Program-made: the position numbers and the translations under genes
Shown: positions 1-31,017 of the stretch, in pieces
How positions within the stretch are numbered: the stretch's first letter is position 1
Layout: each line of letters begins with the position of its first letter
Virus record (IMG/VR): IMGVR_UViG_3300045988_085915
Span: 1-31,151 of that record
Direction: 5' to 3' (one strand)
Length of the DNA: 31,151 bases
Origin: a virus
The notes under the pieces: model-generated
The model's input: only the letters and a program-made list of their open reading frames with translations
Told to the model about the DNA's origin: nothing
The model's database searches: none

Positions 1-119
1 ACTATCAAACTAAAACTACTTCCATATTGAAAATTGAGCTGGGATTAATTCCCAGTTTAATTTTAACCTTTACTGTAACTTTTTTACTAATATTTTGTAG
101 TAAGATAAATAAAAAAAGT
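1..119. repeat. Terminal direct repeat, identical to 31033..31151. Circular-assembly overlap or short DTR; unit genome 31,032 bp.
   Basis: Positions 1-119 (actatcaaactaaaac...aaaaaaagt) match 31033-31151 base for base by direct comparison. Confidence 0.95.
33..64 (+). terminator. Intrinsic-terminator-like hairpin downstream of the + strand GIY-YIG gene on the circular map
   Basis: Core stem CTGGGA(39-44)/TCCCAG(50-55) with a 5-nt loop. It extends to 12 bp (33-61) using two G-U pairs on the + strand RNA, followed by TTTT. Confidence 0.55.
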
Positions 120-157: not shown

Positions 158-1876
158 ATGAAAACTTATTTAAATAATTTAATCAATGAATTACCTACTA
201 ACTGCTTATTTGACAAAGGTAAAGTAGGATGTGGTGGAACTTCAATGGCTTTAGAGTGTGATAAGCCTTATGTTATATGTGTTCCATTTGTAAGTTTAGT
301 TGAGAATAAACTTGCTCAATATCCTAATGAAAGACGTAAAGAGCCTATTTTTGGAGTTTATCAAGGTGTTACTAAGACAGATATTGAAGCTTATATATCT
401 TCAGTTAAATGCCCTAAAATCATTGTTACTTATAATTCTCTTTATAAAGTAATAGAAGCGGTAAATCCTAAAGATTATAGCCTATTAATTGATGAATATC
501 ATATACTATTTAATCAATATAGTCTTAGAAGAGATGCAATTAAAGATGTATTAAAGACATATAGTCTATTTAAAGAATATACATTTATGACTGCAACTCC
601 ATTAGAAGATGAATTTGTTTTAGATGAATTGTCTAAACTGCCATTAGTAAGACAAGAATGGGATGATGTTATTGAGACTAAAGTTCAGACTGTTAAATGC
701 AAGAATGTAGAAGCTTCCACAATTAAGCTTATAAATGGATTTTTAAGTGGGAATGTTGAAGGTAATGCTTATATATTTGTTAACTCTGTTGACTTTATAA
801 AGAATCTTATTTTAAAGGCTAAACTTACAGCAGATAACACAAGAGTAGTATATTCTAAGAATAATAGAACTAAACTGCCAATTCAGAATTCTTCAGTAAA
901 TGATGAACCTAAGAAGATTAATTTGTTGACTTCTACTGTATTTGAAGGTTCTGATATTTATGATGAAAATGGAAGAATTATTGTAGTTAGTGATTCCTCT
1001 AAAGCTCAGACTCTTTTAGATATATCTACTTCAATTCAACAGATTGCTGGTAGAATTAGAAATAGTAAATATTTAAATTGGATTACTCATCTTTATTCAG
1101 CCACAAGATATGCAGAGATAGATTATGATACATTTAAAAATAATACATTAAAGAATATTGAAGAAACAAAGATTGCAGTTGAATCATATAATCAGCTTCC
1201 AGAAGTAGCTCGTAAGAAGATTACAGACTTTACAAGTGACACATATATTCAAATTAATGAGGATTATACCTTTGAATTTGACCCAAATATGGCTAAAGTA
1301 GATATATTCAATTTTAAGGTTGCAAGAGGTTTATACTCTGTAAGAGTTAATCTTACTAATGAATATCTAAAGAATGGCTTTATAAAGGTTGCTGAATGTG
1401 AAGATAAATCTATTAAGATAGACCTTGAAGCTCCTAGTAAGTCATTTCAGGAGCTTATTAAAGATGTAAGAGCTGAATGGGAAACTAAATTTAAAGTTGG
1501 AACTCCTATATTAAATGAAGCTCTAATTAAATATCCTTGGTTAAATGATGCAATTAATAAACTGGGATTTGAAAGAATGGCAACTTTGGGTTATTGCATT
1601 AAAGATATTAAAGAGGAGCTTGTTAAAATATCAGATAAAAATATGCCAAATAAGGTTGCCAAATTACTTACAAGAGATATTCAGAATGGTATGTTCTACA
1701 ATTTAGCTTTATTGAAGAATAAGATTGCTGATGTATATAAGACTTTAGGTATAAAGAAAACTGCAAAGGCAACAGATATTGAACACTATTTTGAAGTTAG
1801 AAAATCAACTAAAACTGAAAAGGATGTTAGAAGCAAAGGATACATTATTATTAGACCAAGATTCATATTTAAATAG
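158..1876 (+). CDS. SF2 helicase-like NTPase (572 aa); the only obvious replication-type gene
   Basis: Uninterrupted ORF ending in TAG. SF2 motifs by eye: GCGGTS (motif I-like, lacks the Lys), LLIDEYH (DExH), MTATP (III), TSTVFEGSDI (V), QQIAGRIRN (VI). All 4 Trp are TGG. Confidence 0.7.
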   Translation: MKTYLNNLINELPTNCLFDKGKVGCGGTSMALECDKPYVICVPFVSLVENKLAQYPNERRKEPIFGVYQGVTKTDIEAYISSVKCPKIIVTYNSLYKVIEAVNPKDYSLLIDEYHILFNQYSLRRDAIKDVLKTYSLFKEYTFMTATPLEDEFVLDELSKLPLVRQEWDDVIETKVQTVKCKNVEASTIKLINGFLSGNVEGNAYIFVNSVDFIKNLILKAKLTADNTRVVYSKNNRTKLPIQNSSVNDEPKKINLLTSTVFEGSDIYDENGRIIVVSDSSKAQTLLDISTSIQQIAGRIRNSKYLNWITHLYSATRYAEIDYDTFKNNTLKNIEETKIAVESYNQLPEVARKKITDFTSDTYIQINEDYTFEFDPNMAKVDIFNFKVARGLYSVRVNLTNEYLKNGFIKVAECEDKSIKIDLEAPSKSFQELIKDVRAEWETKFKVGTPILNEALIKYPWLNDAINKLGFERMATLGYCIKDIKEELVKISDKNMPNKVAKLLTRDIQNGMFYNLALLKNKIADVYKTLGIKKTAKATDIEHYFEVRKSTKTEKDVRSKGYIIIRPRFIFK

Positions 1877-2923: not shown

Positions 2924-3376
2924 TTATATAATAGTAAATTTCTGTCGTCTTTGCATTCCGTCTTTATTCTTTAATCCCAAGTGTATTCAACTTGCTATAC
3001 CATTCTTAGGCTTTTCATATATCAACTGGTCTCAATTTAATTCTTCAATAGCTTCAGCAATCCAACTTTGGAATACTTTCATATTACCATTAATTGGAGA
3101 TATATCTGCTGCATACCCTGTTAAATGAGCAGAAGTTGAAGATCCTCCCACTGCTTTATTAAGCTCCTTATTCCTAAAACCAGAGGAAATCCTGATGCCT
3201 GCATTGCCAAGCTGATTGTCATCACAATACTTTGCCCATCTCTCTCTTATTGGGTCTAAAAGCTTCTCGACCAACTCTATCAGGTGCTCTGTTATACTCT
3301 CATCTGGAGTGTTATTTATATGCTTAATTGAAGCAGTATCAGATCTTGTTAATTCTTCGAGTGTGAAATACTTCAT
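2924..3376 (-). CDS. Endolysin, peptidase M15 family (D-Ala-D-Ala / L-Ala-D-Glu peptidase type), 150 aa
   Basis: FTLEEL..S.TA....INN.P, ISSGFRNKELNKAVGGSSTSAHLTGYAADI (SxHxxGxAxD). After TGA 3032-3034 it continues W-DQLIYE...AS-W(TGA 2987-2989)-IHLGL, matching the family's aromatic-DQLI and aromatic-(I/V)H motifs. TAA stop. Confidence 0.85.
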
Positions 3377-3534
3377 TATTTATATGAATTATGCAGTTTA
3401 TAAAGATAAATAAAATAGCACACTGCTCCAAATAACGTTAAACTAATAGTAATCCAAAAAGGAATTACTTTAATTAACAAAAATGCAATCATTAATAGTA
3501 CAACTACTATTACATATTTTAACCAATATTTCAT
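3376..3534 (-). CDS. Holin-like small membrane protein (52 aa, two hydrophobic segments)
   Basis: MKYWLKYVIVVVLLMIAFLLIKVIPFWITISLTLFGAVCYFIYLYKLHNSYK. Its TAA overlaps the endolysin ATG (TAATG). Below the ORF-track size cutoff. Confidence 0.6.
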   Translation of the reverse strand: MKYWLKYVIVVVLLMIAFLLIKVIPFWITISLTLFGAVCYFIYLYKLHNSYK

Positions 3535-3535
3535 A

Positions 3536-4192
3536 TTACATCTTATTTAAAATTATACTTATCTGTATTCCAGCTCTTCTTAGATGTACTCAAGTATCAT
3601 AAGGCATAGGTGTATCACAGAATGATAAACCTAAAATGCCAATATCTTTATCCTCAGTCTTTAAATAAAATACTGCTATTTCATTCACTCCGTTGGATTT
3701 AAATGCATAATATAATCTTGGATCATCTGTTTCTAAACTATCTATATTACCAAACCATCCATCATTCTTAGAAAACTCTATAATTGAAGTATAGTCAGAT
3801 AACAGGAAGTCTTTATAATGGCTACTTACAGATCTTATTCCTGGTTTTACTTCCTCTGCATTCATTACTCCATAAGTAAATGGAAGTCCTCCTAATCCAG
3901 TAGTTCCATTATGATATTCAATAACCCAAGCTCTATCAGCATTGGTACTTTGAAGCAATTCTTTAAGCTTATATTTAATCTTCAAAGTTGCTTCATTTCT
4001 TGCAATAGTTTTAGAATTGTGAGTTTGTTCAATATAGGTTACAACCTTATTATAAACAATAGAGGGATTAAGTGTAATAACCATTACATAGGATATAAAT
4101 ATTAATCCAATCCCTGCTTTAAATATCTTTAGTAATCCATATTTATCAACCCATTCTAATACTTTACCAAACCAATTTAATTTATTTTCCAT
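3536..4192 (-). CDS. Membrane-anchored protein of unknown function (218 aa), directly upstream of holin and endolysin
   Basis: Start MENKLNW... overlaps the upstream stop (TAATG). N-terminal TM segment AGIGLIFISYVMVITL. TGA at 3590-3592 extends the ORF by 17 aa to TAA at 3536. Confidence 0.6.
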
Positions 4193-4617
4193 TACATACT
4201 GTCTTGACATAAACCCAGTGTGTTGTCAACTTGGAAATCAGCTCTAACAAACACTCCGCAGGTAATATCTTTGAACTTTTGATAGAATGGAGTATAAATT
4301 AAAGGATAAGCTATTTCAACTTCTGGATATAGGTTATTAAAACGATTAATTATATTTTGCAGTGCAAGCATACCTGCTGACTGTTCCTCCAATTGGTTGT
4401 TATCAGTCTCATCCCATCTTGATACGAAGTATAGGTTTAAAGAGTAAGTAATAGTATCTTCATCTACACTAAAAGTATTAGGTGTTATATAGAACACATT
4501 ATACTCAATAGTTGGTAAGCTATTTAACTCATAAATATCTTTACTTCCTACAAAATTGATGTTTGGCTCTTCTAATGCACAAGCTTTTAAATTGCTAATT
4601 ATCTCATAGTAGGTCAT
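4192..4617 (-). CDS. Hypothetical virion protein, possibly head-tail joining (141 aa)
   Basis: Uninterrupted ORF packed between the adaptor-like gene and the membrane protein. The function is a positional guess only. Confidence 0.5.
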   Translation of the reverse strand: MTYYEIISNLKACALEEPNINFVGSKDIYELNSLPTIEYNVFYITPNTFSVDEDTITYSLNLYFVSRWDETDNNQLEEQSAGMLALQNIINRFNNLYPEVEIAYPLIYTPFYQKFKDITCGVFVRADFQVDNTLGLCQDSM

Positions 4618-5307: not shown

Positions 5308-6390
5308 TTATTCAACTATTTTAGAATCAGCTGTATCTAAGCTAAATGGGGTAATTGTGATAGAATTCTTCATACCAAAGATTTTGTCAAATGTATCACA
5401 AATATCTTTTTGCATAGGTTTAATCATCGTTCTATTATATAGTTTAAATGATGAATTAAACTCTTGCTCATTAAATCCAGTAGAATCAGAGTTTATTCCA
5501 AATAAGTTAGGATTAGCTCTAAATGCGCAGAATATCTGTTCTCTTGTCCTATCAGATAAAGCACTATATTTCTCATCAAAATCATCAGAGTCTAAACGCT
5601 CAATAGTAGTCTTATTTGTTTCATCATCATTATATGAAATAAGAACTCTGCCAGCATTTTGAAATCCTGAGAATTTCTCATTAATATTCATCTCAATCTC
5701 TTCTTTAACTTCATCTGTAGGCTGTCCATTATTAAAGTTAATGATAAGATTGCCCATAAATCCATTATGAAGAGAATTTAGATGGAACTCATTAATATTC
5801 TTCTCAGTTTCGCAAGATAAGATAGCTGCACCATAAACAGGGACTGGATATACTTTTCTTGTTATATAGCCCTTATTATAAACAACGCTTGTAGGATTAT
5901 CGTCTGAATAATTAAATTTTGGATATTTGATAGCTTTAATAGACCAAGCAGACCAATCATCAGCATAATAGAATACTTCATTCTTTTCATCAGAACGAAT
6001 CTTCATAAAGTCAAGATGGTATATTTCTGAAACTCTACCTAACATATCTCTAATTATTTGTAAAGCATATCCTCCAAAAATCATCTTATCTTTAGATACT
6101 TTACGCATAATATCCATAATAGTTTCACCTTTCTTATTTACAGTTACTTCAAATCCTGGTGCATTACATATAACATCATTACCAACAATAAAGTCAGCAG
6201 TCCCATTAATGATAGATTGAAGAGTAGCTACATTTAAATATAAATCCCATAAATATACAGGATAGCGATTATCTTCACCCCAAGAAATATAGTCCTTACC
6301 TCTAACTTTACCTTCTACTGGCAATACGATGTTTGATACAATTACTGGATCAATTGCACTTAATTGTACTTTTGTTTTATTTTCGCTCAT
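5308..6390 (-). CDS. Portal protein (360 aa from MSENKTK)
   Basis: Size and motifs (YPVYLWDLY.NVATLQSIINGTADFIVGN, acidic C-terminal half) resemble small PBSX-type portals. No TGA; 4 TGG. Confidence 0.65.
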   Translation of the reverse strand: MSENKTKVQLSAIDPVIVSNIVLPVEGKVRGKDYISWGEDNRYPVYLWDLYLNVATLQSIINGTADFIVGNDVICNAPGFEVTVNKKGETIMDIMRKVSKDKMIFGGYALQIIRDMLGRVSEIYHLDFMKIRSDEKNEVFYYADDWSAWSIKAIKYPKFNYSDDNPTSVVYNKGYITRKVYPVPVYGAAILSCETEKNINEFHLNSLHNGFMGNLIINFNNGQPTDEVKEEIEMNINEKFSGFQNAGRVLISYNDDETNKTTIERLDSDDFDEKYSALSDRTREQIFCAFRANPNLFGINSDSTGFNEQEFNSSFKLYNRTMIKPMQKDICDTFDKIFGMKNSITITPFSLDTADSKIVE

Positions 6391-6769
6391 AAGCCGTATA
6401 TTTGTTTTGTTTATCGTATTGGTATTTATTATTCTGATAATCTCCAATTCTTATTAATCCTGTTCCCAATATAGGTATAGGTTTACCAGCAACTAATATC
6501 TGTGTTCCTGTAGTAAGAGTATTTTCATAAGTTACCAGAATAACTGGATTGCCATATAACTCTGATCTAAATGGATTGTTTACATCAACTATAACTTGAA
6601 ATTTATTTGGATTAGTAAATAAAATATATTGATATTCACCGTCTCTCATTCCTTCTTGAAGTGTAATATCAAACTTATAGTAGATATTCTCAGAATAATT
6701 CTGATTTTCAAGATTAAATGTATAAACTTCTTTAGTAGTTGTATTTTGCATTAATAAAGTATAATTCAT
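6377..6769 (-). CDS. Hypothetical protein (130 aa)
   Basis: Uninterrupted ORF, first gene after the terminator at 6847-6870; overlaps the portal start by 14 nt. Confidence 0.5.
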   Translation of the reverse strand: MNYTLLMQNTTTKEVYTFNLENQNYSENIYYKFDITLQEGMRDGEYQYILFTNPNKFQVIVDVNNPFRSELYGNPVILVTYENTLTTGTQILVAGKPIPILGTGLIRIGDYQNNKYQYDKQNKYTAYERK

Positions 6770-8788: not shown

Positions 8789-8790
8789 AA

Positions 8791-13606: not shown

Positions 13607-14131
13607 TTAAGCACCTACAACGCTTTGAATAGCTTCAGCACTCAACTCATAAGGATATGATTCAGAGTCAGTAGCTAAAGTCAGCGTATAAGCGTTCTGA
13701 TCACCTTTTGCAGTACCAGTAACACCCGTACCAGCGGAAGCGCTTACATAGTCATCTTTTCCTAAGAACCAGTATTTGCCATTAGAATCTTCTACAACAA
13801 CTACAAGTTGTCCAATAGAAAGAGCAGCAATCTCGATTCTTTTCTTAGTCTCCATCTTTGTAAATACAAGAGCAAGCTCATTACTTACATAGTTGGTTCC
13901 TGCAGTTTCGTCAACGTTCAATGTTGAGGTTAGAGAACCAGTACCTTTGCGGAATTGGTAATTATACCATTCAGCATCTGCTTCAAGAGTAATAGCTGAG
14001 ATTTGATTAGTCTCATCATCTACAGTTACACTCTTAACATTATCGTACTGAGTAATCCATACCTGTTTGATACCACCAAGCGAAGCTTCGCAATCCAGGG
14101 TAATACCAGCGATAGTTATTAAACAAGCCAT
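13607..14131 (-). CDS. Major tail (tube) protein (174 aa)
   Basis: Sits directly after the capsid gene. The pattern GGIKQVWI...W.NYQF.KGTGS...LALVF...IGQLVVVVEDSNGKYWFLG...TG...D.NAYTLTL resembles siphophage tube proteins. Higher GC than the surrounding sequence; only TGG Trp. Confidence 0.6.
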   Translation of the reverse strand: MACLITIAGITLDCEASLGGIKQVWITQYDNVKSVTVDDETNQISAITLEADAEWYNYQFRKGTGSLTSTLNVDETAGTNYVSNELALVFTKMETKKRIEIAALSIGQLVVVVEDSNGKYWFLGKDDYVSASAGTGVTGTAKGDQNAYTLTLATDSESYPYELSAEAIQSVVGA

Positions 14132-14169
14132 ATAATTTCAATCTTATTTAAAGTTAAACTCTATTGAAA

Positions 14170-15075
14170 TTAGGCTTTGGCACCAAGAACTACCTCATCA
14201 GGGAATGCAACCTGTACGCCAGCGTTAAATTCAATAGCTAATCTAAATTCGCGGAAATCTTGTGAATACCACAATTCAAACTTCTCTTCATCGTTCATCA
14301 TATCGCAACCATAGAAGAAGTTCTTATCTAACTGACCAGCAACAATCTTATCAGTTCCATTAAGACCATTAACAGCGATTACTTTAACCTGCGAACCAGG
14401 AAGCATAATCTCACCATTAAGATTCTCACCACTATAGTGGTAGTAGTTCTTAGCAACTAACTCCTGGATAAATTTACGGAAAGTATCACTGCCAACTAAG
14501 ATAGAAGCACCATCCAGAACCTTCTCAGGAATAGCGTTATAAACAGCCATAATGTCATCATAAGCAGATGCTCCAGTAATTTCTACATCAACAACCCCAT
14601 CAGCAGCACCAAGGATCTTTAACAGACCATCAAAATACTTCAGGTTATTTGTTTCAGAATCAGTATCACCCTGCCAAATAGCAGTCTCAATAGCAGCCTT
14701 AACATTCTCAACTACTGCATTTACGAAATCCTCTTCAAAAGGAAGCGTCTTCTGACCAGCAGCTACTCGTACTTGATACTGAGTCCAGTATTTAAGCATC
14801 TCTTTATCACAATATGCCATATTGATCTTAATATTACCAGTAGCCAGAATTCTCTGAGAAAGAGTCTGAGTTCCAGCTTCATCCCAACCACAAGCTAGGC
14901 CATCGCCAAACTGAATAGCAGTTGATAACAGGTTAAGAGCAGCACTAGTTTTGATGTCAGTTTGAAGATTGAACAACGAAGCACTCTTAGCCTTTAATAC
15001 AGCCTCTTTAATAAGAGGAAGACGTCTCTGCTCTACATAAGCAGTAAGACTAGTCATTACAGGACTATTTGCCAT
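14170..15075 (-). CDS. Major capsid protein (301 aa)
   Basis: Lies in the canonical protease-scaffold-capsid order. The size and sequence style fit small HK97-fold capsid proteins. GC-richer codon usage; 4 TGG, no TGA. Confidence 0.75.
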   Translation of the reverse strand: MANSPVMTSLTAYVEQRRLPLIKEAVLKAKSASLFNLQTDIKTSAALNLLSTAIQFGDGLACGWDEAGTQTLSQRILATGNIKINMAYCDKEMLKYWTQYQVRVAAGQKTLPFEEDFVNAVVENVKAAIETAIWQGDTDSETNNLKYFDGLLKILGAADGVVDVEITGASAYDDIMAVYNAIPEKVLDGASILVGSDTFRKFIQELVAKNYYHYSGENLNGEIMLPGSQVKVIAVNGLNGTDKIVAGQLDKNFFYGCDMMNDEEKFELWYSQDFREFRLAIEFNAGVQVAFPDEVVLGAKA

Positions 15076-15097
15076 AATTTTATAAATAATTTAATAA

Positions 15098-15700
15098 TTA
15101 ACCAATAAAGTTTTTAAGCTTTTTATCAATAACAGGATTACCAGTCATTATTGAAGCTTTGCCTTCTATCTGTTCCTCAGCTGAAAATGCAGCACTCATT
15201 TTGCTCATCTTTTCAACCGTCTTTTCTGTAGCTTCAGATTTACCCTCTAATTCAGCTACTTTCTTAACAAGCTTATCAACAATGTCATAAAGCTCATTAA
15301 TTTCGCGATGAATTGCATCAATTGCATCAGTTACAGTTTCTTTGTCACCATCAGTAGCTACTTCAGGATCAACTGGCTCTTCAGCAGTTTCTACCTTGCG
15401 TTTTCCACAAGCAGCATCAACTTCTGCTTTAGCTGCTTCTTCTGGATCAACCTCAGCTTTAGGATCAGTTACAGACTCTACTTTACCGTCTTTAACAACA
15501 ATCGTCTTTCCATCCTCAGTTACATACTCACCATCCTCAGCAGGTTTGTATTCTCCGTTCTCATCCTGAACATATACATCCATACCAGCGCGTAAGTCTT
15601 CATCTGAATCCCAAGTAAGTACTGCCTTATCAGTTTTAATATCACTGAACTTTGCAAGCATTTTAGCCAATTCAAGCTTGATTCTTGTGAATTTGCTCAT
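15098..15700 (-). CDS. Scaffolding protein (200 aa)
   Basis: Highly acidic, with Glu/Lys/Ala-rich coiled-coil segments; located between the protease and capsid genes. Confidence 0.65.
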   Translation of the reverse strand: MSKFTRIKLELAKMLAKFSDIKTDKAVLTWDSDEDLRAGMDVYVQDENGEYKPAEDGEYVTEDGKTIVVKDGKVESVTDPKAEVDPEEAAKAEVDAACGKRKVETAEEPVDPEVATDGDKETVTDAIDAIHREINELYDIVDKLVKKVAELEGKSEATEKTVEKMSKMSAAFSAEEQIEGKASIMTGNPVIDKKLKNFIG

Positions 15701-15713
15701 TTAATTAATAATT

Positions 15714-16307
15714 TTAATGTTTAACTCTTTTTATCTTCTTAATCATATTAAGGATCTCTTTTATTTCGTCATATTCATCAGACTTTCTCTCTAAAGTAAA
15801 TAAACCTTCAATTGAGAACCCTTTAAACTTACCAGCTTTAATTGCATCTCAAATAACTTGATTATCTACTTTATAAGTGGCAAATAAAGAACCATCAGGA
15901 ACATCCTGGAATTCAACTGGAGATATTCCTCTATTAATATCCTTTACATAGATTTCTTGTAGAGTAATTCCATTTAAATCAGAATCTTCTAAATGTTCAA
16001 TATTTACATCTGTAGTTCTCTTATCATACAGCATCTTCTCTGCCATTTTACGAAGAGTTTCCTTATCATACTGTATGTAGTATTCTCCGAGTTTCTCATC
16101 TCGTCTGAAAATTGGAGTATCACTTAACATTAAGCAAGATGTTACTAAATGCTTATCTTCATCCATCGAGAACTTCTGAGAATTACTAAAAGCAACCCAG
16201 TTAACTTGTGTAGCTGGTTTACTTGTTAAAGCAACATATTCTATTCCATCACAATCATCAGTAATCACTGCCTGAAATAATGGAAGATCATTATAAGTAA
16301 TTTCCAT
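15714..16307 (-). CDS. Prohead protease, XkdF-like (197 aa)
   Basis: N-terminus LFQAVITDDCDGIEYVALTSKPA. TGA at 15849-15851 continues into W-DAIKAGKFKGFSIEGLF, the family-typical G.SIEG motif. TAA at 15714. Confidence 0.6.
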
Positions 16308-16419: not shown

Positions 16420-19188
16420 TTAGAATGAAGCATTAGATTCAGTAACTGCTACCTTAGTTTGAGCTGAAGTAATGTCAGATTCAACAACATAACACTTAAC
16501 AGGTTCATTTAAAAGGTCAGTTTCTTTATCTCCAAGTAAGTTTCGAGTATATTCAACAGGAGCTGTATTTAAAGCAGCTGGTGCTGCCACTGCTGCAGAT
16601 GCTCCACTCACTCCACTTGCACCTGATTCATCTACTTCTCAAATCTTTTTAACATTTGCAATACCTGCAACTACTGCGGCTGCAGCTGCAGCAATACCTA
16701 AAGCAGGACCTACAATAGGAATTCCTGCCATAGCAGAGTATGCGCTATTTGCTGCTGAATAAGTGTCAATTAAAGCTTGTGCAGTAGCAAATCCTTTTCC
16801 AACTTTACTCTCTTCTCCCCAAATACTTGCCATACTTCCTGCAATGCTTGAAGCTACAGATAAAGTTCCCTGTAAAGCTTGCTGTCTTGCTTTTTGAAGA
16901 TTTTGATAAGCCTGAGTATTTGCCTGTTCATTAGCTAATTGAGCATCTGATAAGGCCATATTATTCTCAGTAAGAGTTCTTTGAATTTCCTCTTTTTGTT
17001 CAGCAGTTAATTGTTCATTCATTAATTGCTGATTTAATAAGGCATTCTCTTGCTCTATTCTACCTTGAGTTAATGAGAGTAAGTTGTTATTGTATTCAAT
17101 TTGAGCATTGTATTGATTCTCTAAGTCCTCTCTACTCTGATATGTAAATTTATAACCAGTCCCTTCATAATCTCCAGCCAATCCAAATGCTTTCGATATA
17201 CCTTGAGTATAAGTAGTCTGAAAGGTCTGCTCTCTTGGCTCTCTCAAATTACTTGTAGAAGATAAATCTCTAATCCTTTTTAATTCAGACTGTAGATCAT
17301 TCCAAGCTTTATCTGCATCTTCCTTACGCTTAGCTTCTTCATCAGCTCTAGCTTTATCTCTAATCTTTTTAAGCTCTTCCTGATGCCAAGCTTCTACCTC
17401 TTCAATTCCCCTATTATACTTAATAGCTAATGCTAATAGTCTAATATATTCATCTTCAAGTTCATCTACTGGGTCTTTATCCTCTAATCTCTTTTGAAGC
17501 CATTCATCAAATTCATTAATTACCTTCTTAGCTTCAGTAGTGTTCTTTGTAATAGTTGGAATATTAAAGAATCCACCATACTTTTTATTAGTATCTGCTA
17601 CATCCTCAAATAGCTTTCTAAGCCTTTTCTCAATGTCTTTATTTAAATCATCCAACTGTTTATAAGTATTCTCTTTATTTTGCTTTGTATACTCATAAAT
17701 TGTATTTGAATAATCTTTTCAGAACATTGCTGTAGCTTTAAAAGCCTGCCAAGCAGATGCCTCTCCAAAGCTTGTATCAGAAATTTGATTCTCCAGTTCA
17801 GTACGTTTGTTTAAATACTCCTCATAAAGTTTAATTGCAGCCTGTTCAATAGCTTGTGCTTTAGCTCTTGCTTCTAAGGCTTCTACATAATTGCCTGTAT
17901 TATTTACAAACGCATCTTCTGCAGTCTTTACATTAGTGATATTTAAACCAGTCTCTTTAATCTTATCGGAATATTGCTCTATAAACTTACGCTTAGCATC
18001 TGCAGAATCTCCAACCCTTTCGTAAGCTATTTGTAACTCTCTAAAGATAGCTATAGATTTAGAAGCAATCTGATTAGTAGTATCTGTAATAGACTTTCTA
18101 AATTCAGCAGCCTCCTTTTCAGCTGATTTTATTGAGGATATATACTCTATTATCTTATTAATAGCTACTCCAATAGCTGTAGCTAATGCAATTCATACAG
18201 TTACATTACCAATAGTTTTAAGTGCAGTTTTAACTTTACCTACTCCAGAAGCAGCTTGTTCTGAAGCTTCAGCCATTGCTTTCTGAGCCTCTGCTCCTTT
18301 TCGCAAAGTTGGAATGCCTTTTTCTACATTTTCCTTTAATTCATTAAGATCTACACCTAAACGTTTAGCAGCTTTCTGCATTCTCTCTGCTGGAGTTCCA
18401 GTCTCTTTTGCTGCTTCCTTTAAAAATTCAGCAACTGTAGTAAATGTAGGTTTTACTTCTTCAAAGGACTTTTTTGCAGTTTCTCCTAATTTACCTATAA
18501 TCGGAATCGTATTAGATACACTCTTATTAGTAGCAGATATTTCAGCAGGAGTGCCCATTACTCCTTGAATCATACCTCCTTTAAAATTAATATTGGTGCC
18601 TTCTAAATCCTTGACTACTTTAGAGATATTACCTAATTCAGTTCCAACATTACCAACAGATGTGCCAATGCCATTAAGCTTAGATGCATCAATCTGATTA
18701 AGATTTTTGGCAGCATTATTCAACCCTGTATTAAATGGAGAGATAAAATCAGTTAATTTCTTAAACCAATTACCTAAAGTAGGCAATTCTTCTAATAAAT
18801 CTTTTATACCTCCAATACCTTGTACTAATGCAATAGATGACTGTAACTTAACCATTACTTTAGTTAAATCTTCAGATTCTTTCCCAAATAAAGTAATGGC
18901 AGCTGTTGCAGCTCCATATCCACTGGCCAAACCAGTGGATATTTTAGCTACACTTTCAAACCTTTGAGCAGTAGTTCTTGAAGATCTTGCTATCTGCTCA
19001 TTAATTTTATTGAATTCTGATTGTCTCTTACCAAGTAATGAAAGAGTTTCATTATATTCCTTAGTACCAATCTCTAAATCATTCAGCGAATTAGTTAATG
19101 CATCAATATCTTTCTTTAAAGAGTTTATTGACTTATTACTTGACTTAGTATCAATACTAATAACCTTTTTAATTTCTGTTTGTGCCAT
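16420..19188 (-). CDS. Tape measure protein (922 aa)
   Basis: Three in-frame TGA (18193-18195, 17719-17721, 16639-16641) join four pieces. I translated 17656-18192 and 16612-16638 and found no stops. Long coiled coils plus Gly/Ala-rich hydrophobic segments (GIPIVGPALGIAAAAAAVVAGIA). Confidence 0.7.
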
Positions 19189-22100
19189 TAGATTGTAATA
19201 TTTTTAACAGTATCTTCTGTTAGTGTTAAATTCTCTGTATATTTAACTGTTCCTGTAGGTTCATCAGTCACTTCAAATTTAAACTGAACACCTTTTTGAG
19301 CATATATTCTATAATTTCCATTATCCTGCATATAAGCCACATTCAAGAAGTTATCGTTTTCTGTAAGTATCTGATTTACCCCAGTTGGTATAGTGCCACT
19401 TGGAGTTTCTAATTTGCCTGTAATAAGAACAGCTTTATTTGGGTCTGGAGTTTGAGTAAACATACATTTAGGACCATCTACGCCTCCTTGTTTATAAAGA
19501 CTAAAGTAGAAACTTCTTTGGTCATATTTAGTATTCTCATTATAAGTAACTGTTAATTCTGTTTCTCCAGGTTGCCCAGATTCAGGTGTAATGCTTACAA
19601 TTTCATTTGGACTATATCATCCTAATTCTCAAGGAATATTAGAAGTAACTGTAATCTTTTTAGTCCCAGCTTTATAATCTACAACTGGATCTGAATCATC
19701 AAATGATATATATTCACCTAGATTTTGAACTCCAGCTAAATAACTATTAATATTTTGAACTTTAATAAATTCACATCTAACTGTAGAATCTGAATTAATA
19801 TCATAAGCGTCAATCTTATTAAGTACCCAGTAAGAATCTTCAAAATAATAGAATTGTCTAAGTAAATCATACTTAACATCTAAATCATCCAATCTTACAA
19901 AGCAGGTAACTTTTTTAGTATTTACATCAAATTGATCATTATAAAATTCACTTCAGAATCTACTATAAATAGTACTTCCGATATTATAAGTTATATCATC
20001 AATATAAATCTCTTGTGGTAATCCAAAATCTCAAGAAGCAGTAACATTAGAGGACGAAACGGTATACCTTGTAAATTGAGGTAATACAGTTCTCTTTATA
20101 GCAATTTTATTCCCCCTAATATCTTTCTCACTTTTAGTAGATATATAACACATTTCCTGATCATTTAATATGTTCATTTCTGTAAGATCATCTGTAATTC
20201 AATATGTTACTTCATTTCCTTTTACATCAGTTAAAGGAACATTACCGTTAAAGAATACTAGGGATTGAGAGATATCCTCTAAAGATTCCTCATTACCATC
20301 AATTGAGAAAAATACATTTTTGGCAAATATATCATTACCTGCGATTTTATATCATTCTGTGGTTTTAGAGGGATCTATAAAATTAGCTCCGTATAACTCT
20401 TGATCTATAGTCTTAAGTTCAGTAGTGCTATTATTAAATAATGTATAGGTAATATTATCATTCATAAATGCAGGAACTACAAGGGAAGAAGAATTGTAAA
20501 AATTTCTAAAATATTTATTTCTCCATCTTGCAGAAACTATATTTTCATATATATTATCACTATACAGTTCAGTTGTTTCAGAATTAAAATTATAACCAGT
20601 ATTTAATCTTTGTTGACCATATAATATAGAATATTCCTTATTGTATTTTTTATAAAAATAAGTTTCTGGACCTTCAGAACTCATTCTATATCACTTCTTA
20701 TCAAATAATATTGGATTTACATTGAAATCTTTAGAATAATCTATTCTCTTACTCCAATCAGAGATTATATTCTTAAAGAAATTATTTCTAGTATATATTC
20801 TAATTGTTTTACTATCAATATCTTTTGTAAAATATAACCCAAATAGTTTTGCATAACTCAATAAGTAATCAGCAGGAGATTGTTCTGTTTTTAATAATAA
20901 TTTTTTAGTTAATAATGCATTACTTTGAAGTACCTCTGTAGAAGTAGTAATTTCAATGGGAGAAGTAAGATCTACTATAAGATCTCCTTTTGGAATAGCT
21001 TGGTAATCCTCTCCTCTTTCTATTACTTCACTTAATAATCCAGTAGGTCTAACACTATTTCCAGTAGATCATACAACATTAAGTTTAATTTTAATTTTAT
21101 TAATTGGAATTTTAAAATTTGTAATATTAATAACAAAATCATTAGTTAATGAAGAAGTATCATAAAATACATTATTTTGAAAATACCCAAAATGATTAAC
21201 CCCATTAGCTATAGGATTTGAGTAGGTTCCTGAATTTGTAAATCTATGTATTTCAGAAGTATAAATAGTATCATCTACTTCATTAGTAATTGTTAGCCAA
21301 ACATCAGCGTATCCTCTATATGCTGAATAAAAAGGAGGAGCAGAGGAGCTAAAATACCTTCTAAATCCAAAAAAATATCTATCCCCAACATTTCCTGCAG
21401 TTCGATTAAACTTTAACTTAAAATAAAAAGTTGTAGAAAGGCTTTTTCTAAATCCAGCCTCACTTAAATCAATTATTCCAGAATCGTAAACAATATCAGG
21501 TGATGCAATGGATAATTTTAAAGGACTTGATGTAGATTCTCCTTTATTTATACCTACCTGATAATTATATTTACTATCTTCTACTAAAAAGCCAGATTCT
21601 GTTACATCTTCTTCGTCACTTACTAGATTAGATAATAAAGGTAAAGCTACAAAGGATTTACTTCAATACGGATTATTTCAATTAAAAAATGAAGGATCAA
21701 ATACTACATCATATCCAGAATTCTCTTTTCTACAGATAGTTTCAATTAACTTACTCAATTTTAAAGCTGGCCTTTGCATATAACTTCTAAGATCTCTCAT
21801 CTCCCATTCTGTATATGCTCTATTTAATTTAGCTAATCCATACCCATTATAAGGTGTATATGTAACTCCTGAATCTGTCTTACTAGTAGGAAATATACTA
21901 TTTTCATTAGTATTTATTAAACAACTTTCATTATCAAAATCTTCATATAAACCATTATATGCTGGAATAAATGTCAAATAATCATATATTTGACTTCCTT
22001 CATTCGTTTTACTTCAGTCAAAACAAGTATTTACAAAATCTTTGTTAATATAAAAATTAAGTTCAGTATCAGCAGGAAGTGTATTTCCATCTTCATCAGT

Positions 22101-22544
22101 TACAAAGTATTGTAAATCAGCAAGAGTCCTAATAGTACCATCTTCTTTATATTTAAGACCATAAAAGAAATCTCCTAATCCTCCATATAAAGTAATATTA
22201 TAAGTAATAATAGCTTGTTTTATAGATATACTATTTAATTGCATATATCCAGATTCAACTAAATAGCCATTATTATAAATTCCAAAATCAACTCGTTTTG
22301 AAGGATCAAAATATACTCCAGAGAAATTACCTTCTTTTATATGGAGAAATCTATCTAACTTATAAATCTCTCCAAATATCTTATTATTATTTTTGGTACC
22401 AGGTATAGAAATCGTCTTACTAAACGAGTTCTTGACTATAGTGGGGTTTTGGAAATCCTCAACAGTATATGTCATAGGAAGACTAATTCCCTCACTACAG
22501 TCAACCTCTTTATTTGCAATAAATAATTTAATATTCTTTCTCAT
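19188..22544 (-). CDS. Large tail/baseplate protein (1118 aa) with C-terminal Ig/BACON-like domains
   Basis: All fragments (22014..22544, 21678..21977, 20352..20684, 19629..19892, 19188..19463) share one frame. I translated every gap and found only TGA (11 codons) and no TAA/TAG. Its TAA overlaps the tape measure ATG (TAATG). Confidence 0.8.
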
Positions 22545-22546
22545 AA

Positions 22547-24727
22547 TTATTTACGATAAGTATCTTGAGAAGCTTCTACATTAATTGTATAATAGAACTT
22601 GTTTTTACCTTGATTAGTATAAGTTTTATATTCACAATTTGTATCTGTAATCAATACTGGAGTGATAGTATTATCTTTAAGATTATGCAAATATACTTTG
22701 GTACTCTCAATTAGATTAAACATCTTAGAAGCTTGAATATCATTTAAATAACCAGTATAAAGAACCCAGCTTGAAGTTATAGTATTCAAATACTTATTTC
22801 TTGCAAACTCTTGTGATGTATTTAATACCTTACGAGTATATGTTTCAGATTTAATCTCATCATTCTTTTTAACATTACCCTCAACAAGTAATGAATCTCA
22901 TCCACCTGCTGAATTAGTATAATATAACACATAATCTTTACCTGTAGTATCTATATCATATCTAATCTGTCTATCACTAATATTTCCACCTTCTACAAAT
23001 CCTACTATTAAATAGCTTCCACAAGGCCATAATTTATTACTTAAATCTTCTGTATATGTATATCCATTAATTCCAGAATTTAAACTAATATCCATAGCAG
23101 ATTGTACTCCATCTATATAAAAGAATCTATTAATAACTCCAGTTCCAGTTGGTAGAATTCAACTTGATACTAAATACTGCCTTGGATCAACTAAACCAGT
23201 AATAGGATCACTTAACATAGTGCCTTTAGTTAGATCTCTATCTTTATAACTCCAGTCATTGAAGAAAGTAATTGGTTTTTCATTTCCACTAGATGTTATC
23301 AAAGTAAATGGTTTCAAATATTCTGGAGATATTATAGTTTTAGAAGTATTAAATATAATACCGTTAGATAGATAATTTTCAGCTACATTATTTAATAGAA
23401 ACTCTACTCTATCTGTTTCAGGATATTTATAAGCCTTGCCAGCATAAACCATTTCTCCTGCATAATCTAGATGATATTCAATAAAATCAGAACTGATAAT
23501 TTCTTCCCAAACATAATCTTTCCAAATAGGAGATATATCAGATTTAACAGATTGTGTAATATTAATAGATAAATTAATAATACTTGAACTATTCTTTATA
23601 ACAGATACTCCAATAGTTGCTTGTCTAGAAGATAAACCTGAATTTTCTGCAATGTTCAAACTAATAGTTGCTACACCTTGAGGATTCACAGAGAACTTCT
23701 GACCACTAATCCAACCTACAGGAATACTAAATACAACATCATCTAAGTTATTTGAGCCTGTACCAATTATATTTAATGTAGATGCAGTTCAACTTACTTC
23801 ATAATTAGTATTAGGAATCACTAAAGATGTTGCAGCTTGTTTAATTGGAACTGTAGCTTCAAGAGTATAACCTCCAGAAGTTGTTGCAGTAACCATTGCA
23901 CTAAACTCTAAATTATTAGTAGTTTTATTCTCTGGAACAGTTAATACAAAATAGTTATCAACAATATCCTTTTTAATATTACTAGCTTGAGGGCAGGTAA
24001 CATTAAATGAGGTAATTGTTTCTTCTGCTTTAGTTGTACTTAAATGGAATTCTTCAGTAACAAAAGCAGATGCTCCATAAGTTCCAGATGAAGGAGTTAC
24101 TATTAGCTTTAAATCTTCTGGAGTATTACTTTTTTCAATTTTAAAGCCGTAACTATAACTAATAAATTTATTAGTATCATAATAAGCTCCTAATTGAATA
24201 GTTCCAATTAAATCTGTATTTCATTGAGTATTAGCTCTTACTGTGAATTTAAACTTAATAGAGCAAGAATCCCATTCTAATACCTCAACACTCACTAAAG
24301 CAGTAGCATTTACTACATCACAAGTTCATTTAATAATATCTGCTCTATTTAATATATATTCAACAGTATAGGTACCTCCAGTATTGGGCACTGTTATACT
24401 GCCATTTGCAGGATAATATCCAGGAGCTTGACTATGAAGATAAACTGGCATAGTATCTTCTAATTGAACAGTAGTCAGTCCTTTTGGGTATAATCTAAAT
24501 ATTGTAGAAGAGTCTGTTGTAATAGTTGAGGGATTTGTAAAGTTAATAGTACAACCACTTGTACTTGCATTAGAAATAGTAACATCTAATGGACCCTCTT
24601 CTGAATAGTCATCTCCTCATAGCCAATAATCATATACTCCTGTAAGACCTCATCCTGGATTTTCCCATTTAACAGGATATGTTCCTGTACTTCTTGGTAT
24701 TCCTAATTTACTTGGTATAAATGTCAT
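22547..24727 (-). CDS. Tail structural protein (726 aa): N-terminal Ig/BACON-like repeats plus a C-terminal distal-tail-like domain
   Basis: ATG at 24727. I translated 24727 to 23630 and 22900 to 22787 directly; the intervening stretches are track ORFs in the same frame. There are 7 in-frame TGA. Fragments 23159..23689, 22898..23095 and 22547..22789 share the frame. TAA stop 2 nt before the next ATG. Confidence 0.75.
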
Positions 24728-26125: not shown

Positions 26126-27409
26126 CTATTTAAATTTAATATTATAATGTCCTTTAGTTGTATTTAATGAGTCATAGGCTAGCATTAATGAAATTACTGT
26201 ATCATCATTAAATCCAGATGGAGCATTATAACTAACATTTCCAGTTTTTGGATTATATGAAGCTTCATATAGTCTTAACTCATTTAAAAGTTTATCATCT
26301 TTTAATAATCCTATCTTTTCATTCTCCAAAGCAGCTTGAAGCTTATTTACAATAGCTGCTTTAGACTTATTAGTAGTTAAAAACTTAACTATCCGTAATT
26401 TAGGATTCCTTTTTACAAGAATATCATAAAACACTGAACCTATTGAGTTTTGTTCAACTTGAACTATCTTTATAAATCCCTGATACTCAGTAAATATATT
26501 TGTCAGTAAATCAACTTGTTCTGTTGGAGTTTTGTCGTTAAAATACTTTATAAAGACCATCTGCCCATTTTCATTTAAAGCTGTAATACAAGTATAGTCT
26601 TTACCAGAACCAGTAGCCCAGTCAACTCCAATATAGAGATTATGATATTCAGGTTTTTTATCAATTATACAGTTAGCTATATTATTAAATAGGCAACCAT
26701 CATCATCTGCAAACTCTCCAAGATATTCAGTTCTAAATTTATTTTTGGAGGTTGTAAGGCGATACATTTCAAGTTTATCCTCACTTAACAGCATAGAAGT
26801 ATCTTCTAATGCTCAATCAAAGGATTGATAATATTTACTAAAATTACCATCAAAGCCTTTTTTAAAGCATTCATAAAAGAATCCTTCTCTAAACCTTGGA
26901 GTACTAATTATAAGTATTGGAGCATTCCATACATCAGCGATAGGTGTTAAAATTTCGTATACTTCATCTGATATATAAGCTGCTTCGTCAATTACTAATA
27001 TTCCACTAACTGTAAATCCTCGTAATGAATCTTTTTGCTCAGCAGATTTAAATAGTATTTCACTCCCATTAGTAAATTCAATCTCAAGCAAAGATTCATT
27101 CTTTTTCTTAATAATATCTGTGCCATCTAATGCCTTTACTAACTCTTTAAATATCTTTCTGGAGTTAGTAAGAGTTGGTTCAACAATACAGCTAATACTT
27201 CCAGGATAGTTAATTGAAAATCGTAATAGTTCATTTTCTGCCATAAAGGATTTACCACATTGTCTCTTTGCTTTTACAGTAAATATTTTTCCAGACCTAT
27301 AAGAGTGCTCTAAAGCAGTATGTACCTTTAATTGATAGATAAATGGGCTATATCCTTTATATATTTTTGTCATTGTTAATTGGATCTCCAAATTTAAACT
27401 GGACTTCAT
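26126..27409 (-). CDS. terL: Terminase large subunit (427 aa; alternative start ATG 27373 gives 415 aa)
   Basis: Walker A-like KRQCGKSF and Walker B-like ILVIDEAAY; nuclease half with GVDWATGSGKDYT and FNDDTV. An in-frame TGA at 26813-26815 joins track ORFs 26813..27409 and 26126..26794. Confidence 0.85.
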
Positions 27410-27809
27410 TATTCTGAATAGCTACAATAGTCTCAGGTTGATTTAATCCAAACATACTATTTATAGTCTTAATAATCTCATTTGCAGCTCTAATATCTCC
27501 CTTACTAATAGCAGTATCCAGTAATGATTCCAATCTTGATAATTGTATATGTCTAAGATTTTTTATAAGGTTATCATTCTTTTCAGCAATTATCTTATAA
27601 GCTTCTCCAATATATCTTGCAGCCGTTGATTGGCTTACATTATATTTACTTTGAAGTTCTTCACTTACTTTATTCCTTGACCATCCTTTGTTAAATAACC
27701 TTGCAGCATAAAGATATTTAGTCTTTACTTCGTCTATTTGATTCTCTTTTACCTCTTCCTTTCTTGGCCTCCCTGTTTTCTTCGGCAGTTCCTGATTCTT
27801 TACTTTCAT
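27357..27809 (-). CDS. terS: Terminase small subunit-like protein (150 aa)
   Basis: Basic N-terminus, HTH-like WSRNKVSEELQSKYNVSQSTAARYI, and a coiled-coil middle; immediately upstream of and overlapping TerL. Confidence 0.55.
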   Translation of the reverse strand: MKVKNQELPKKTGRPRKEEVKENQIDEVKTKYLYAARLFNKGWSRNKVSEELQSKYNVSQSTAARYIGEAYKIIAEKNDNLIKNLRHIQLSRLESLLDTAISKGDIRAANEIIKTINSMFGLNQPETIVAIQNNEVQFKFGDPINNDKNI

Positions 27810-28053
27810 TTTCCTTTAGTTTTTCTTGATATTCAAAATAGATTGGGGCAATCCTCTTTATAAGATTAAGTATACAAGTAGCACAAGCTACGCTCATTCT
27901 ATATTCTTGTTCAATTAAACATTCATAAATCTCTTTAAGCTTAATTACATCCTGCTTTTGTACATTTCTGCAATAATTAGACTTAGTTGCAGTTACAAAT
28001 CTATCTTCAAATCCTCTTAAATATTTAAACTGCTCTTCTGTTAATTGTTTCAT
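27718..28053 (-). CDS. Hypothetical protein (111 aa)
   Basis: ORF from ATG 28053 (MKQLTEEQFKYL). Its C-terminal 30 aa overlap the TerS start in another frame. Confidence 0.45.
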   Translation of the reverse strand: MKQLTEEQFKYLRGFEDRFVTATKSNYCRNVQKQDVIKLKEIYECLIEQEYRMSVACATCILNLIKRIAPIYFEYQEKLKENESKESGTAEENREAKKGRGKRESNRRSKD

Positions 28054-28142
28054 AATTAGCACTTTTTAGTATAAGTAAATATAGAAATTAACTTTCCATT
28101 CTTGTAGTGATAAATAACTTCTGTTTCCATAAAATATAATTT

Positions 28143-28472
28143 TTAATCAATAAGTTTGTATATAACATCTATCAGCTTAGTAGATGCATCTTTTAATAAT
28201 ATCATAATATCTTTAATAATTGGAGTCATAAATGCTAATAGTGCAATATATCCAACCATTAAAATTGAAAATTGACTTGTAATAAGAATATATATTAATC
28301 CAATTCACCAAGTCATACATAAACTGCAATCTAAAGGTTTTAGTCTTCAATCTTCTTTATAAGGCATACCTTTAAATAGTCTTTTTCAAATACTATGTTT
28401 AAAACTATCCAAAGCCCCAGATAAATCAATTATAAAGACTATTATTACTGCTATTATAAATAATTCTAACAT
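28143..28472 (-). CDS. Small integral membrane protein with a CxxC motif (109 aa)
   Basis: Invisible to the ORF track because of three in-frame TGA. Hydrophobic N-terminus, KPLDCSLCMTW-W(TGA)-IGLIYIL, second TM segment. TAA stop. Confidence 0.5.
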
Positions 28473-30153: not shown

Positions 30154-30164
30154 AATTAAATATA

Positions 30165-30404: not shown

Positions 30405-30442
30405 AAAATTCATATTTCCAAATATTTTTTCATTTATTTTTC

Positions 30443-30982: not shown

Positions 30983-31017
30983 AAATAATGCTTAAATTAT
31001 TTGGAGATTGAGAAAAA

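Follow-up and report, generated by a model that had tools for sequence, protein, structure and literature searches.

A small phage that uses TGA as a tryptophan codon, with a predicted peptidoglycan-targeting lysis cassette and no detected UGA-decoding tRNA

We analysed an uncultured phage genome, IMG/VR record IMGVR_UViG_3300045988_085915 (positions 1 to 31,151; this whole stretch of 31,151 nucleotides is called the window here), with particular attention to its lysis cassette at 2924-3534. TGA is a tryptophan codon in this phage, and its predicted endolysin is completed only if UGA is read. We found no tRNA in the window that could read it, which leads us to infer that UGA is decoded by something in the infected cell. 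The host is most likely a standard-code member of Bacteroidota, and we tentatively favour host tRNA-Trp(CCA) as the reader of UGA, acting once a phage function has removed the competition from release factor 2 (RF2).

Results

Recoding of TGA to tryptophan

The first-pass annotation of this DNA had proposed that TGA is a sense codon, and this was borne out. Open reading frames (ORFs) of at least 100 aa covered 61% of the window under code 11 and 91% when TGA was taken as sense, while recoding of TAG added nothing; the longest ORF grew from 572 to 1118 aa. The 36 ORFs contained 47 in-frame TGA codons, spread over 24 of the 36 genes, together with 72 TGG. Their stops were TAA (32) or TAG (4) and never TGA, a count which, since the ORFs were called with TGA as sense, shows just that each of them reaches a TAA or TAG.

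In family-wide alignments, the codons facing the TGAs of the window were TGA (610), TGG (272), TAT (49), TTY (27) and GGN (1). A near-invariant Trp of the homologues aligned with a TGA of the lysin, the major capsid protein (MCP) had KY*TQY where a homologue had KYWTQY, and the C-termini of three paralogous tail proteins read KNW, KNW and KN-TGA. We conclude that TGA is tryptophan (code 4) and not glycine (code 25). A glycine reading, with a host of the Gracilibacteria/Absconditabacteria type from the candidate phyla radiation, would suit the low GC (30%), and such phages are known from human and animal microbiomes; it is nevertheless refuted by the single GGN against 272 TGG among about 1,000 aligned codons and by the conserved Trp in the lysin and MCP, just as the idea of untranslated TGAs (pseudogenes or assembly error) is refuted by a near-identical contig from an independent assembly (run ERR1136696) and by TGA positions that are kept across dozens of genomes, and we give these readings practically no chance. 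Annotation pipelines that apply code 11 truncate the lysin and tail genes of such a phage.

The lysis cassette

The two lysis genes annotated at 2924-3534, for an M15 peptidase and a holin-like protein, were both recovered. The endolysin gene (2924..3376, minus strand) encodes a single-domain, 150-aa Peptidase_M15_3 zinc peptidase (Pfam PF08291, E=2.5e-13) with two in-frame TGAs. Its profile matched the M15 zinc D-Ala-D-Ala carboxypeptidase 1LBU (E=1.7e-7), and H84, D91 and H132 were invariant among 17 sequences, giving the H-x6-D plus H pattern of zinc ligands, in which H132 would be the third ligand. From the family match, the holin-like neighbour and the conservation in 26 relatives, the M15 protein probably cleaves peptidoglycan for lysis.

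The first in-frame TGA, codon 115 (3032..3034, minus strand), is where the code-11 ORF ends at 114 aa. It faces F, W or Y in homologues, and among the relatives the codon was TGA in 7 and TTY in 19. The second, codon 130 (2987..2989, minus strand), lies two residues before H132 and faces a near-invariant Trp. We observed that W130 was TGA in 26 of 26 distinct relatives (51-100% identity), while W47 was TGG in all 26. Both TGAs are upstream of H132, so that a product ending at either of them is without this residue, and the lysin is completed only if UGA is read.

The holin-like gene (3376..3534, minus strand) ends in a stop codon that overlaps the start of the endolysin gene. Its product, of 52 aa, has two hydrophobic segments (19-mers, from hydropathy) and a charged, basic C-terminus (KLHNSYK). 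No Pfam or PHROG match was obtained for it, and 'holin-like' is a call by position and physico-chemical features. This gene is free of TGA, with 0 TGA against 15 TGG in 8 distinct relatives. Directly upstream is the gene of a 224-aa protein (3536..4210, minus strand) with an N-terminal membrane anchor (transmembrane residues 25-43), a candidate third lysis component by its position only. TGA was present in 97% of the relatives of this neighbour, and position 207 was TGA in 29 of 29.

Taken together, the predicted cassette is an ordinary module of the Gram-negative type, with a small M15 endolysin, a holin-like protein with two transmembrane segments and a membrane-anchored partner. Single-domain lysins without a wall-binding module are typical of phages of Gram-negative hosts. 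The first-pass annotation had taken the lysis module to imply a walled host, and we agree, as the conserved M15 endolysin argues against a wall-less Mollicute.

The nearest cellular homologues of the lysin (L003-L006 and L140-L142, on Bacteroidales metagenome contigs) were 161-162-aa M15_3 proteins of 50-53% identity. They sit in loci for contractile injection systems (sheath, tube, VgrG/PAAR, gp25), beside Mfa-like fimbrillin and HU-HIG genes, and are possibly a wall-remodelling component of these machines.

Search for a phage-encoded decoder

The window holds a complete phage genome of 31,032 bp assembled as a circle (circular or terminally redundant), which makes the absence of a decoder from it meaningful. 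Positions 1..119 are an assembly overlap, a direct repeat 100% identical to 31033-31151; the source contig, ERZ27260728:k119_120900, is a MEGAHIT assembly at k=119, and the 119-bp repeat is its circular overlap. The same genes were found on dozens of contigs of 29-33 kb.

ARAGORN found 0 tRNA and 0 tmRNA in the window, and an Rfam cmscan at E<=10 returned 7 junk matches, none of them a tRNA or tmRNA. With the thresholds of ARAGORN lowered to 80%, we obtained 13 matches, all of them within ORFs and none with the anticodon TCA. The non-coding gaps, in which the first reading by eye had seen no tRNA, were of 15-27% GC; no 75-nt window exceeded 52% GC, the richest ones lying inside ORFs. Thus neither relaxed ARAGORN (80-90% thresholds, intron mode and mitochondrial mode) nor Rfam gave a suppressor tRNA gene with a credible TCA anticodon in the window. 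The one 'tca' match, from the mitochondrial mode at c[3758,3821], was rejected, being an armless 64-mer inside a gene, with an anticodon loop that was not conserved in relatives at 74% identity.

The further claim that no release factor or tryptophanyl-tRNA synthetase (TrpRS) is encoded also held, as none was found by Pfam on 30 ORFs together with precomputed Pfam matches for the large tail ORFs. Among 120 related phage loci (L007-L126), the only tRNA was a tRNA-Leu at the contig end of a distant standard-code relative, and two merged full-length relatives had none. The phage never needs RF2, since all its stops are TAA or TAG, but it does need UGA as Trp for the terminase, tail proteins, lysin and most of the small early-region proteins; with no tRNA in the phage, the decoder would be in the infected cell.

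Signals of the host

The close clade yielded neither a lysogen nor a cultured relative, so that the host had to be inferred. It is most likely a Gram-negative, standard-code member of Bacteroidota, to which five independent lines of sequence evidence point: the promoters, the translation starts, the lysin relatives described above, the structural module and a temperate relative.

The primary promoter of Bacteroidota has the consensus TTTG at -33 and TAnnTTTG at -7 (PMC7366714). The composite motif TTTG-N19-21-TAnnTTTG (sigma-ABfr type) occurred exactly twice in the window, in both cases in intergenic DNA and leading into two divergent early units. One copy, TTTG-N20-TATATTTG (31000..31031, plus strand), precedes the rightward early unit with the helicase gene, and its inverted-repeat partner (30391..30422, minus strand) precedes the leftward early unit. 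Both boxes are kept in relatives, while the sequence of the 20-nt spacer varies. The earlier hint of Bacteroidota promoters was thus upheld by the composite motif at the early units, but not by the bare TATATTTG count, which was uninformative, TAnnTTTG alone not being enriched genome-wide (45 found against 45.5 expected). Sigma-70 sites of the E. coli type were not enriched in the window either.

Most starts were without a Shine-Dalgarno (SD) sequence, as had been noted at first: an SD-like motif was present at 2 of 31 to 5 of 36 starts. With a background fraction of A of 0.37, the fraction rose to 0.77 at -3 and to 0.61-0.65 at -12 to -14. This pattern is the one reported for the mRNAs of Bacteroidetes, whose starts are without Shine-Dalgarno and A-rich at -3, -6 and -11 to -15.

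The structural module, from the gene at 25483 to the gene at 4192, was syntenic with elements in GTDB genomes. Two of these matches were on chromosomal contigs >100 kb, both from Chitinophagaceae; the others were binned with Bacteroidaceae, Bacteroidales and Flavobacteriaceae, with a few elsewhere that were equally SD-poor. A profile scan of GTDB genomes with the large terminase (TerL) gave nothing.

The temperate relative, c557 (loci L041 and L107 of IMGVR_UViG_3300032038_000557, merged), is itself recoded, with 66 TGA against 52 TGG. Its integrase combines Arm-DNA-bind_5, SAM_5 and Phage_integrase domains, and its lysin is of the GH108 type and carries a peptidoglycan-binding domain. An integrase 60% identical to that of c557 adjoins a tRNA-Arg gene in a BACON/GH-rich, Bacteroidales-like contig. 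A search for a c557 lysogen through the integrase (JGI metagenomes and protein collection) returned just the phage contig and this tRNA-Arg element, which looks unlike the phage family studied here.

Genome-wide code screens have placed code 4 in Mycoplasmatales, a few endosymbionts, three gut genera of Eggerthellaceae and two Minisyncoccia lineages (the last two as of 2026), and no code-4 lineage has been reported by them in Bacteroidota. The background given in the first-pass annotation, that cultivated code-4 bacteria are mainly Mollicutes and a few reduced endosymbionts, is slightly dated, code 4 having since been reported in gut Eggerthellaceae and in metagenome-assembled genomes of Patescibacteriota.

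Gene-specific use of TGA

We compared TGA and TGG counts gene by gene across the family; relatives in which TGA cannot be sense, namely the standard-code and TGA-free L109-L126, are part of these counts. In the head module (13607..16307, minus strand; protease, scaffold, MCP and tube-like protein, the protease with an XkdF-like Pfam match), the TGA/TGG counts were 1/207 for the MCP, 1/104 for the tube-like protein, 0/28 for the scaffold and 9/82 for the head protease. The SF2 helicase-like early protein (158..1876, plus strand; 572 aa) had 1/109 in 24 distinct relatives, and the holin-like gene the 0/15 already given. The leftward early promoter is followed by two small genes (29914..30344, minus strand; 59 and 93 aa) that are both TGA-free, with 0/22 for the gene at 29914-30195 and 0/2 for the other. 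The two are poorly conserved, with 3 and 15 distinct homologues.

The picture was different for the other genes. TerL (26126..27409, minus strand; Terminase_6N and Terminase_6C, one in-frame TGA) had 51/56, the lysin 36/46 and its 224-aa neighbour 97/69. The tape-measure-like protein and two large tail proteins (16420..24727, minus strand), with 3, 11 and 7 in-frame TGAs in the window, had 84/125, 226/335 (19188-22544) and 164/370 (22547-24727). The small early-region genes (27718..29914, minus strand), which include an HTH/sigma-r4-like protein and an HNH endonuclease, mostly carry TGA: the early gene 28143-28472 had 68/50, the HNH endonuclease gene (28996-29490) 41/20, and the others 18/7, 15/39 and 34/27.

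Within the window, the TGA share of Trp codons was 0.04 in the TGA-poor genes and 0.49 in the rest (Fisher p=8e-6), while the Lys, Glu and Gln codons were 50-72% A-ending in both groups alike. In the TGA-using genes, 76% of conserved Trp columns were TGA/TGG-polymorphic against 60-64% for Lys/Glu/Gln columns, and the figure for the TGA-poor set was 36%; this test was limited to recoded genomes. Since Trp columns are as polymorphic as those of Lys, Glu and Gln, TGA is effectively synonymous with TGG, that is, neutral, in most genes. It is selected against in the first early genes and in those proteins that are made in the largest amounts. The base after TGA, compared with that after TGG, showed no bias to leaky contexts (519 against 617 distinct contexts, p=0.34).

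The GC of the head and tape-measure region (13000-19000), which coincides with the TGA-poor genes, is 33-39%, against 23-31% elsewhere. Either a codon choice linked to expression or a separate ancestry of the module could lie behind this difference.

The 572-aa early protein was also considered as a translation factor, being TGA-free, but this was rejected on account of its SF2 helicase fold (AF2 model with pLDDT 87; Foldseek matches to DEAD-box, BLM and HSV origin-binding helicases).

Relatives and the path to recoding

All relatives with a TerL identity of at least 50% were TGA-recoded, while the next relatives by capsid similarity (L109 and L115) were free of TGA or nearly so. More distant relatives (L122, L123 and L170) use the standard code with TGA stops; in L170, of 47% GC, TerL itself ends in TGA. 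L109 together with L165 is IMGVR_UViG_3300029905_000019, a syntenic relative of 30,128 bp and 28% GC with an MCP of 67% identity. L109 had 5 TGA against 65 TGG in frame, and none of its 42 stops was TGA, so it looks like an intermediate, 'TGA-vacated' stage of codon capture. We had to reject it as a clean standard-code sibling for comparing gene presence and absence, since its stops are TGA-free but it already has five in-frame TGAs.

In phages on standard-code hosts, TGA stops are purged and the codon then returns as sense (Borges et al., bioRxiv 10.1101/2021.08.26.457843). By analogy, the present family would follow the same trajectory, with the stops purged first and the codon then coming back as sense.

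A 28-nt att core, similar to the 3' end of a tRNA (T-arm and acceptor), is common to c557 (~14589-14760) and L170 (11237-11264). The 148-kb IMG/VR contig 175865 was tried as a lysogen with host flanks, and this was rejected, as it appears to be a concatemer of phage genomes. The 3' part of this record (IMGVR_UViG_3300045988_175865, 148,631 bp; L012/L067/L089) covers the 31-kb phage over more than one unit length, with an identity that varies as a mosaic. It has the look of a concatemer, or of a chimera assembled from related genomes, rather than that of a jumbo phage or lysogen.

Discussion

How UGA may be read

The reading that we put forward, at somewhat below even confidence, is that host tRNA-Trp(CCA) decodes UGA once the competition from RF2 has been removed by a phage function. 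The tRNA would read UGA through a third-position C-A mismatch, RF2 would be removed or swamped by a small TGA-free early protein or a virion-delivered factor, and RF1 would be enough for the TAA and TAG stops of the phage itself. Such near-cognate decoding would be slow, and abundant proteins would then avoid TGA, the capsid, scaffold and tube-like genes keeping TGG. The first early genes, which would need to act before the switch, would keep TGG as well, and the remaining genes would drift freely between TGA and TGG. The two small genes at 29914..30344 are, speculatively, candidate carriers of the pre-switch function. We favour host tRNA-Trp because the host signals are those of a standard-code phylum and because the new meaning, Trp, is what the natural near-cognate tRNA inserts. 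It is wild-type tRNA-Trp that naturally reads UGA as a near-cognate codon, and the choice of Trp as the new meaning would follow from this. Near-cognate reading by tRNA-Trp(CCA) was among the options first listed for this phage, and it survives only with the added condition that RF2 competition is removed.

Several observations weigh against the tRNA-Trp(CCA) proposal. No RF2-targeting or tRNA-modifying gene was identified in the phage, and no cytidine-deaminase motif (for C-to-U editing of tRNA-Trp) was found. The largest TGA-free early protein is an SF2 helicase, and the small early ORFs that lack TGA show no family-wide conservation. In c557, a host-type promoter leads straight to a gene with 7 TGAs, and hardly any gene of some size lacks TGA, a pattern which suggests that UGA can be decoded from the start of infection. 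The unbiased base after TGA means that there is no footprint of RF2 competition, and the 11 TGAs in one ORF demand a high efficiency per codon. Finally, prophage and lysogen searches gave no lysogen of the close clade, which leaves the host without a direct link.

Alternatively, the host itself could read UGA as Trp, either as an uncatalogued walled code-4 lineage (without RF2 and with tRNA-Trp(UCA)) or through strains that have a chromosomal UGA-decoding tRNA-Trp. This would explain why the decoder is absent from about 120 family loci, why TGA occurs in early and late genes alike, including the first gene of c557, and why TGA and TGG interchange neutrally in most genes with no termination-context bias. 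Walled code-4 lineages have lately been reported in gut Eggerthellaceae and Patescibacteriota, so the catalogue is still growing, and a coexistence of tRNA(UCA) with tRNA(CCA) could likewise lead highly expressed genes to prefer TGG. However, the promoters, the SD-free A-rich starts, the lysin relatives, the integrase type and the prophage relatives all point to Bacteroidota, where no code-4 member has been reported among hundreds of thousands of genomes. The family is so abundant, with 4,036 MCP homologues and one contig at 529x coverage, that its host should already have been sequenced. Moreover, TGA makes up 40% of Trp codons, against 60-70% A in comparable codon pairs, and about 0% in abundant proteins, and close relatives shun TGA or use it as a stop. 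A single-domain lysin and SD-free starts do not fit Actinomycetota. We therefore consider a natively code-4 host unlikely, though it deserves to be taken seriously, and do not favour the uncharacterised walled code-4 lineage that the first-pass annotation had listed first.

A more specific form of the proposal is a tRNA-free switch of a standard-code Bacteroidota cell, in which a small early ORF or a virion factor neutralises RF2 or alters the host tRNA-Trp. In this specific form it is doubtful; if true, it could explain the lack of suppressor tRNAs in most code-4 phages.

A suppressor tRNA(UCA) could also be supplied in trans by another element of the same cell, for example a plasmid, a resident prophage or a recoded phage that has co-infected it. 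Such a helper would fit a phage without a decoder of its own, and other gut phages carry Sup-TCA tRNAs, including even one standard-code phage (Borges et al.). The TGA-free L109 and L115 would likewise fit a host population in which some cells decode UGA and others do not. On the other hand, no co-occurring element was seen, it seems fragile for a whole diversified clade (TerL identity down to 50%) to need a second element in each productive infection, and only a few percent of gut phages are recoded, fewer still with Sup-TCA. We consider a helper improbable.

We think it very improbable that a non-canonical phage RNA was missed by the tRNA finders, be it split, permuted, armless or overlapping a coding region. 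Borges et al. (bioRxiv 10.1101/2021.08.26.457843) raised this for recoded phages in general, and the armless 'tca' at c[3758,3821] might be cited for it, but this match lies within a gene and its anticodon loop is not kept in relatives. Rfam at E<=10 showed nothing tRNA-like, the non-coding DNA is sparse (~1.3 kb as the sum of gaps between ORFs) with no GC-rich island, and the sole conserved intergenic element is an AT-rich 50-nt palindrome. We know of no armless tRNAs that are used by bacterial EF-Tu and ribosomes.

Other features of the genome

We take the phage to be tailed and most likely non-integrating. It belongs to a large, widespread family of uncultured phages with genomes of ~31 kb, which, from the sample and record names, appears to be gut-associated (human and animal gut, and rumen). 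Among GenBank phages we found no DNA or MCP match, and TerL was at most 29% identical, to Thermus and haloarchaeal phages; no relatives were found among the Mycoplasma and Spiroplasma phages there.

Almost all genes are on the minus strand, apart from a plus-strand block at 158-2315 that ends in a bidirectional terminator hairpin (2319-2348). The portal protein is encoded at 5308..6447 (minus strand; Pfam Phage_portal, E=1.2e-15). Three tail-fibre-like proteins (6923-7894, 8791-9912 and 12569-13522) are paralogous, with BspA-type LRR-like repeats and a shared C-terminal stretch of ~40 residues (...EEQKSL.TSKNW...). Small paralogous 'MEH...' ORFs (8552-8815 and 12348-12569), which look like fibre chaperones, follow two of these fibre-like genes.

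An AT-rich element of ~50-65 nt is present in three copies (65-131, 16351-16409 and 25281-25347), one of them in the opposite orientation; the helicase gene, head module and tail module each have one copy upstream. It consists of a palindromic frame, TGTAAC-TTTTTT...AAAAAA-GTTACA, around TTTTTACTnATATTTnGTAG. It could act as a promoter (middle or late) or operator specific to the phage, perhaps for the sigma-r4/HTH-like protein at 28466-28711. A GC-rich hairpin, with a T-run behind it, lies at 36-58 (= 31068-31090), after the rightward early promoter and ahead of the helicase gene. In relatives its stem is swapped for another complementary pair (GGCAGG...CCTGCC), again with a T-run after it, which suggests a conserved attenuator or terminator in the 5' leader.

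Three genes of the homing-endonuclease type are present in the 31 kb: a NUMOD1-domain gene at 2352-2921 (minus strand), taken as GIY-YIG-like from its N-terminus, an HNH_3/NUMOD gene at 28996-29490 (minus strand) and a GIY-YIG gene at 30494-30982 (plus strand). All three have in-frame TGA, so these selfish genes are also adapted to the recoded state, and their homologues are at other positions in relatives such as L109.

Significance and comparison with known systems

These results bear on how stop-recoding phages get their codon read in a standard-code host, for which the suppressor-tRNA answer fails in 65-85% of published TGA-to-Trp genomes. The present family offers a very small test bed for this question, with 31 kb, ~40 genes, hundreds of natural variants, no tRNAs and recognisable early promoters, as well as TGA-tolerant and TGA-excluding genes and relatives at the standard, TGA-free and recoded stages. 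If host tRNA-Trp decodes UGA after RF2 is disabled, phages would have here a new way of taking over translation, which would also be a ready tool in the engineering of genetic codes. A host with a code 4 of its own would instead be the first lineage of this kind to show expression signals like those of Bacteroidota.

The phages of Mycoplasma and Spiroplasma, which follow the native code 4 of their hosts, resemble this phage in TGA = Trp without a suppressor tRNA and in low GC. Their hosts, however, are without peptidoglycan, whereas the present phage has a conserved M15 endolysin with an intact zinc site, and promoters of the Bacteroidota type. A tRNA-Trp(UCA), which is found in code-4 cells and defines them, though not necessarily code-4 phages, was absent from the genome.

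With M15 endolysins and cell-wall peptidases (Peptidase_M15_3, 1LBU), the lysin has in common the zinc-ligand pattern, the Pfam and PDB profile matches and the adjoining holin-like gene. It differs in that its nearest cellular relatives are Bacteroidales contractile-injection components and not prophage lysins.

The crAss-like and Lak phages with TAG-to-Gln recoding are alike in their standard-code Bacteroidota hosts (a probable host here), a reassigned stop, SD-free starts, a GC that is low relative to the host, and recoded late or lysis genes. They differ in codon and amino acid and in size (100-600 kb), and they commonly carry suppressor tRNAs and sometimes RF2, while the present phage has 31 kb and neither of these.

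The closest comparison is with the code-4 gut phages already published, which have predicted standard-code hosts among Bacteroidetes or Firmicutes and recoded lysis genes (Borges et al.; PMC11210395). A Sup-TCA tRNA was present in 35% of code-4 phages in one study (Borges et al., bioRxiv 10.1101/2021.08.26.457843) and in 15% in another (Cook et al. 2024, PMC11210395). A code-4 phage without a suppressor tRNA is thus already documented (65-85% of such phages), and the puzzle of the mechanism is not new. The present phage is like these in TGA = Trp, the absence of TGA stops, a predicted standard-code host of the Bacteroidetes type, a recoded endolysin, relatives that have shed TGA stops or keep the standard code, and the lack of Sup-TCA. 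Its size, 31 kb, is similar to the ~34 kb of the Garnet and Amethyst clades of Borges et al., while their Jade phages carry an operon with RF1 or TrpRS that this phage is without.

In the model of Borges et al., early and replication genes are in the standard code, structural and lysis genes are recoded, and the switch is encoded by the phage (suppressor tRNA, release factor or aminoacyl-tRNA synthetase). With regard to recoding as a lysis timer, the endolysin does have at least one TGA in 26 of 26 relatives, while the holin-like gene has none. The division into standard early and recoded structural genes was not seen, and no switch gene was found in the phage. The early helicase is TGA-free, as in that model; unlike it, five small early-region genes are recoded here, and the capsid, scaffold, tube-like and holin-like genes are TGA-free. 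What is new here is the near-exclusion of TGA, family-wide, from the capsid, scaffold, tube-like, helicase and holin-like genes.

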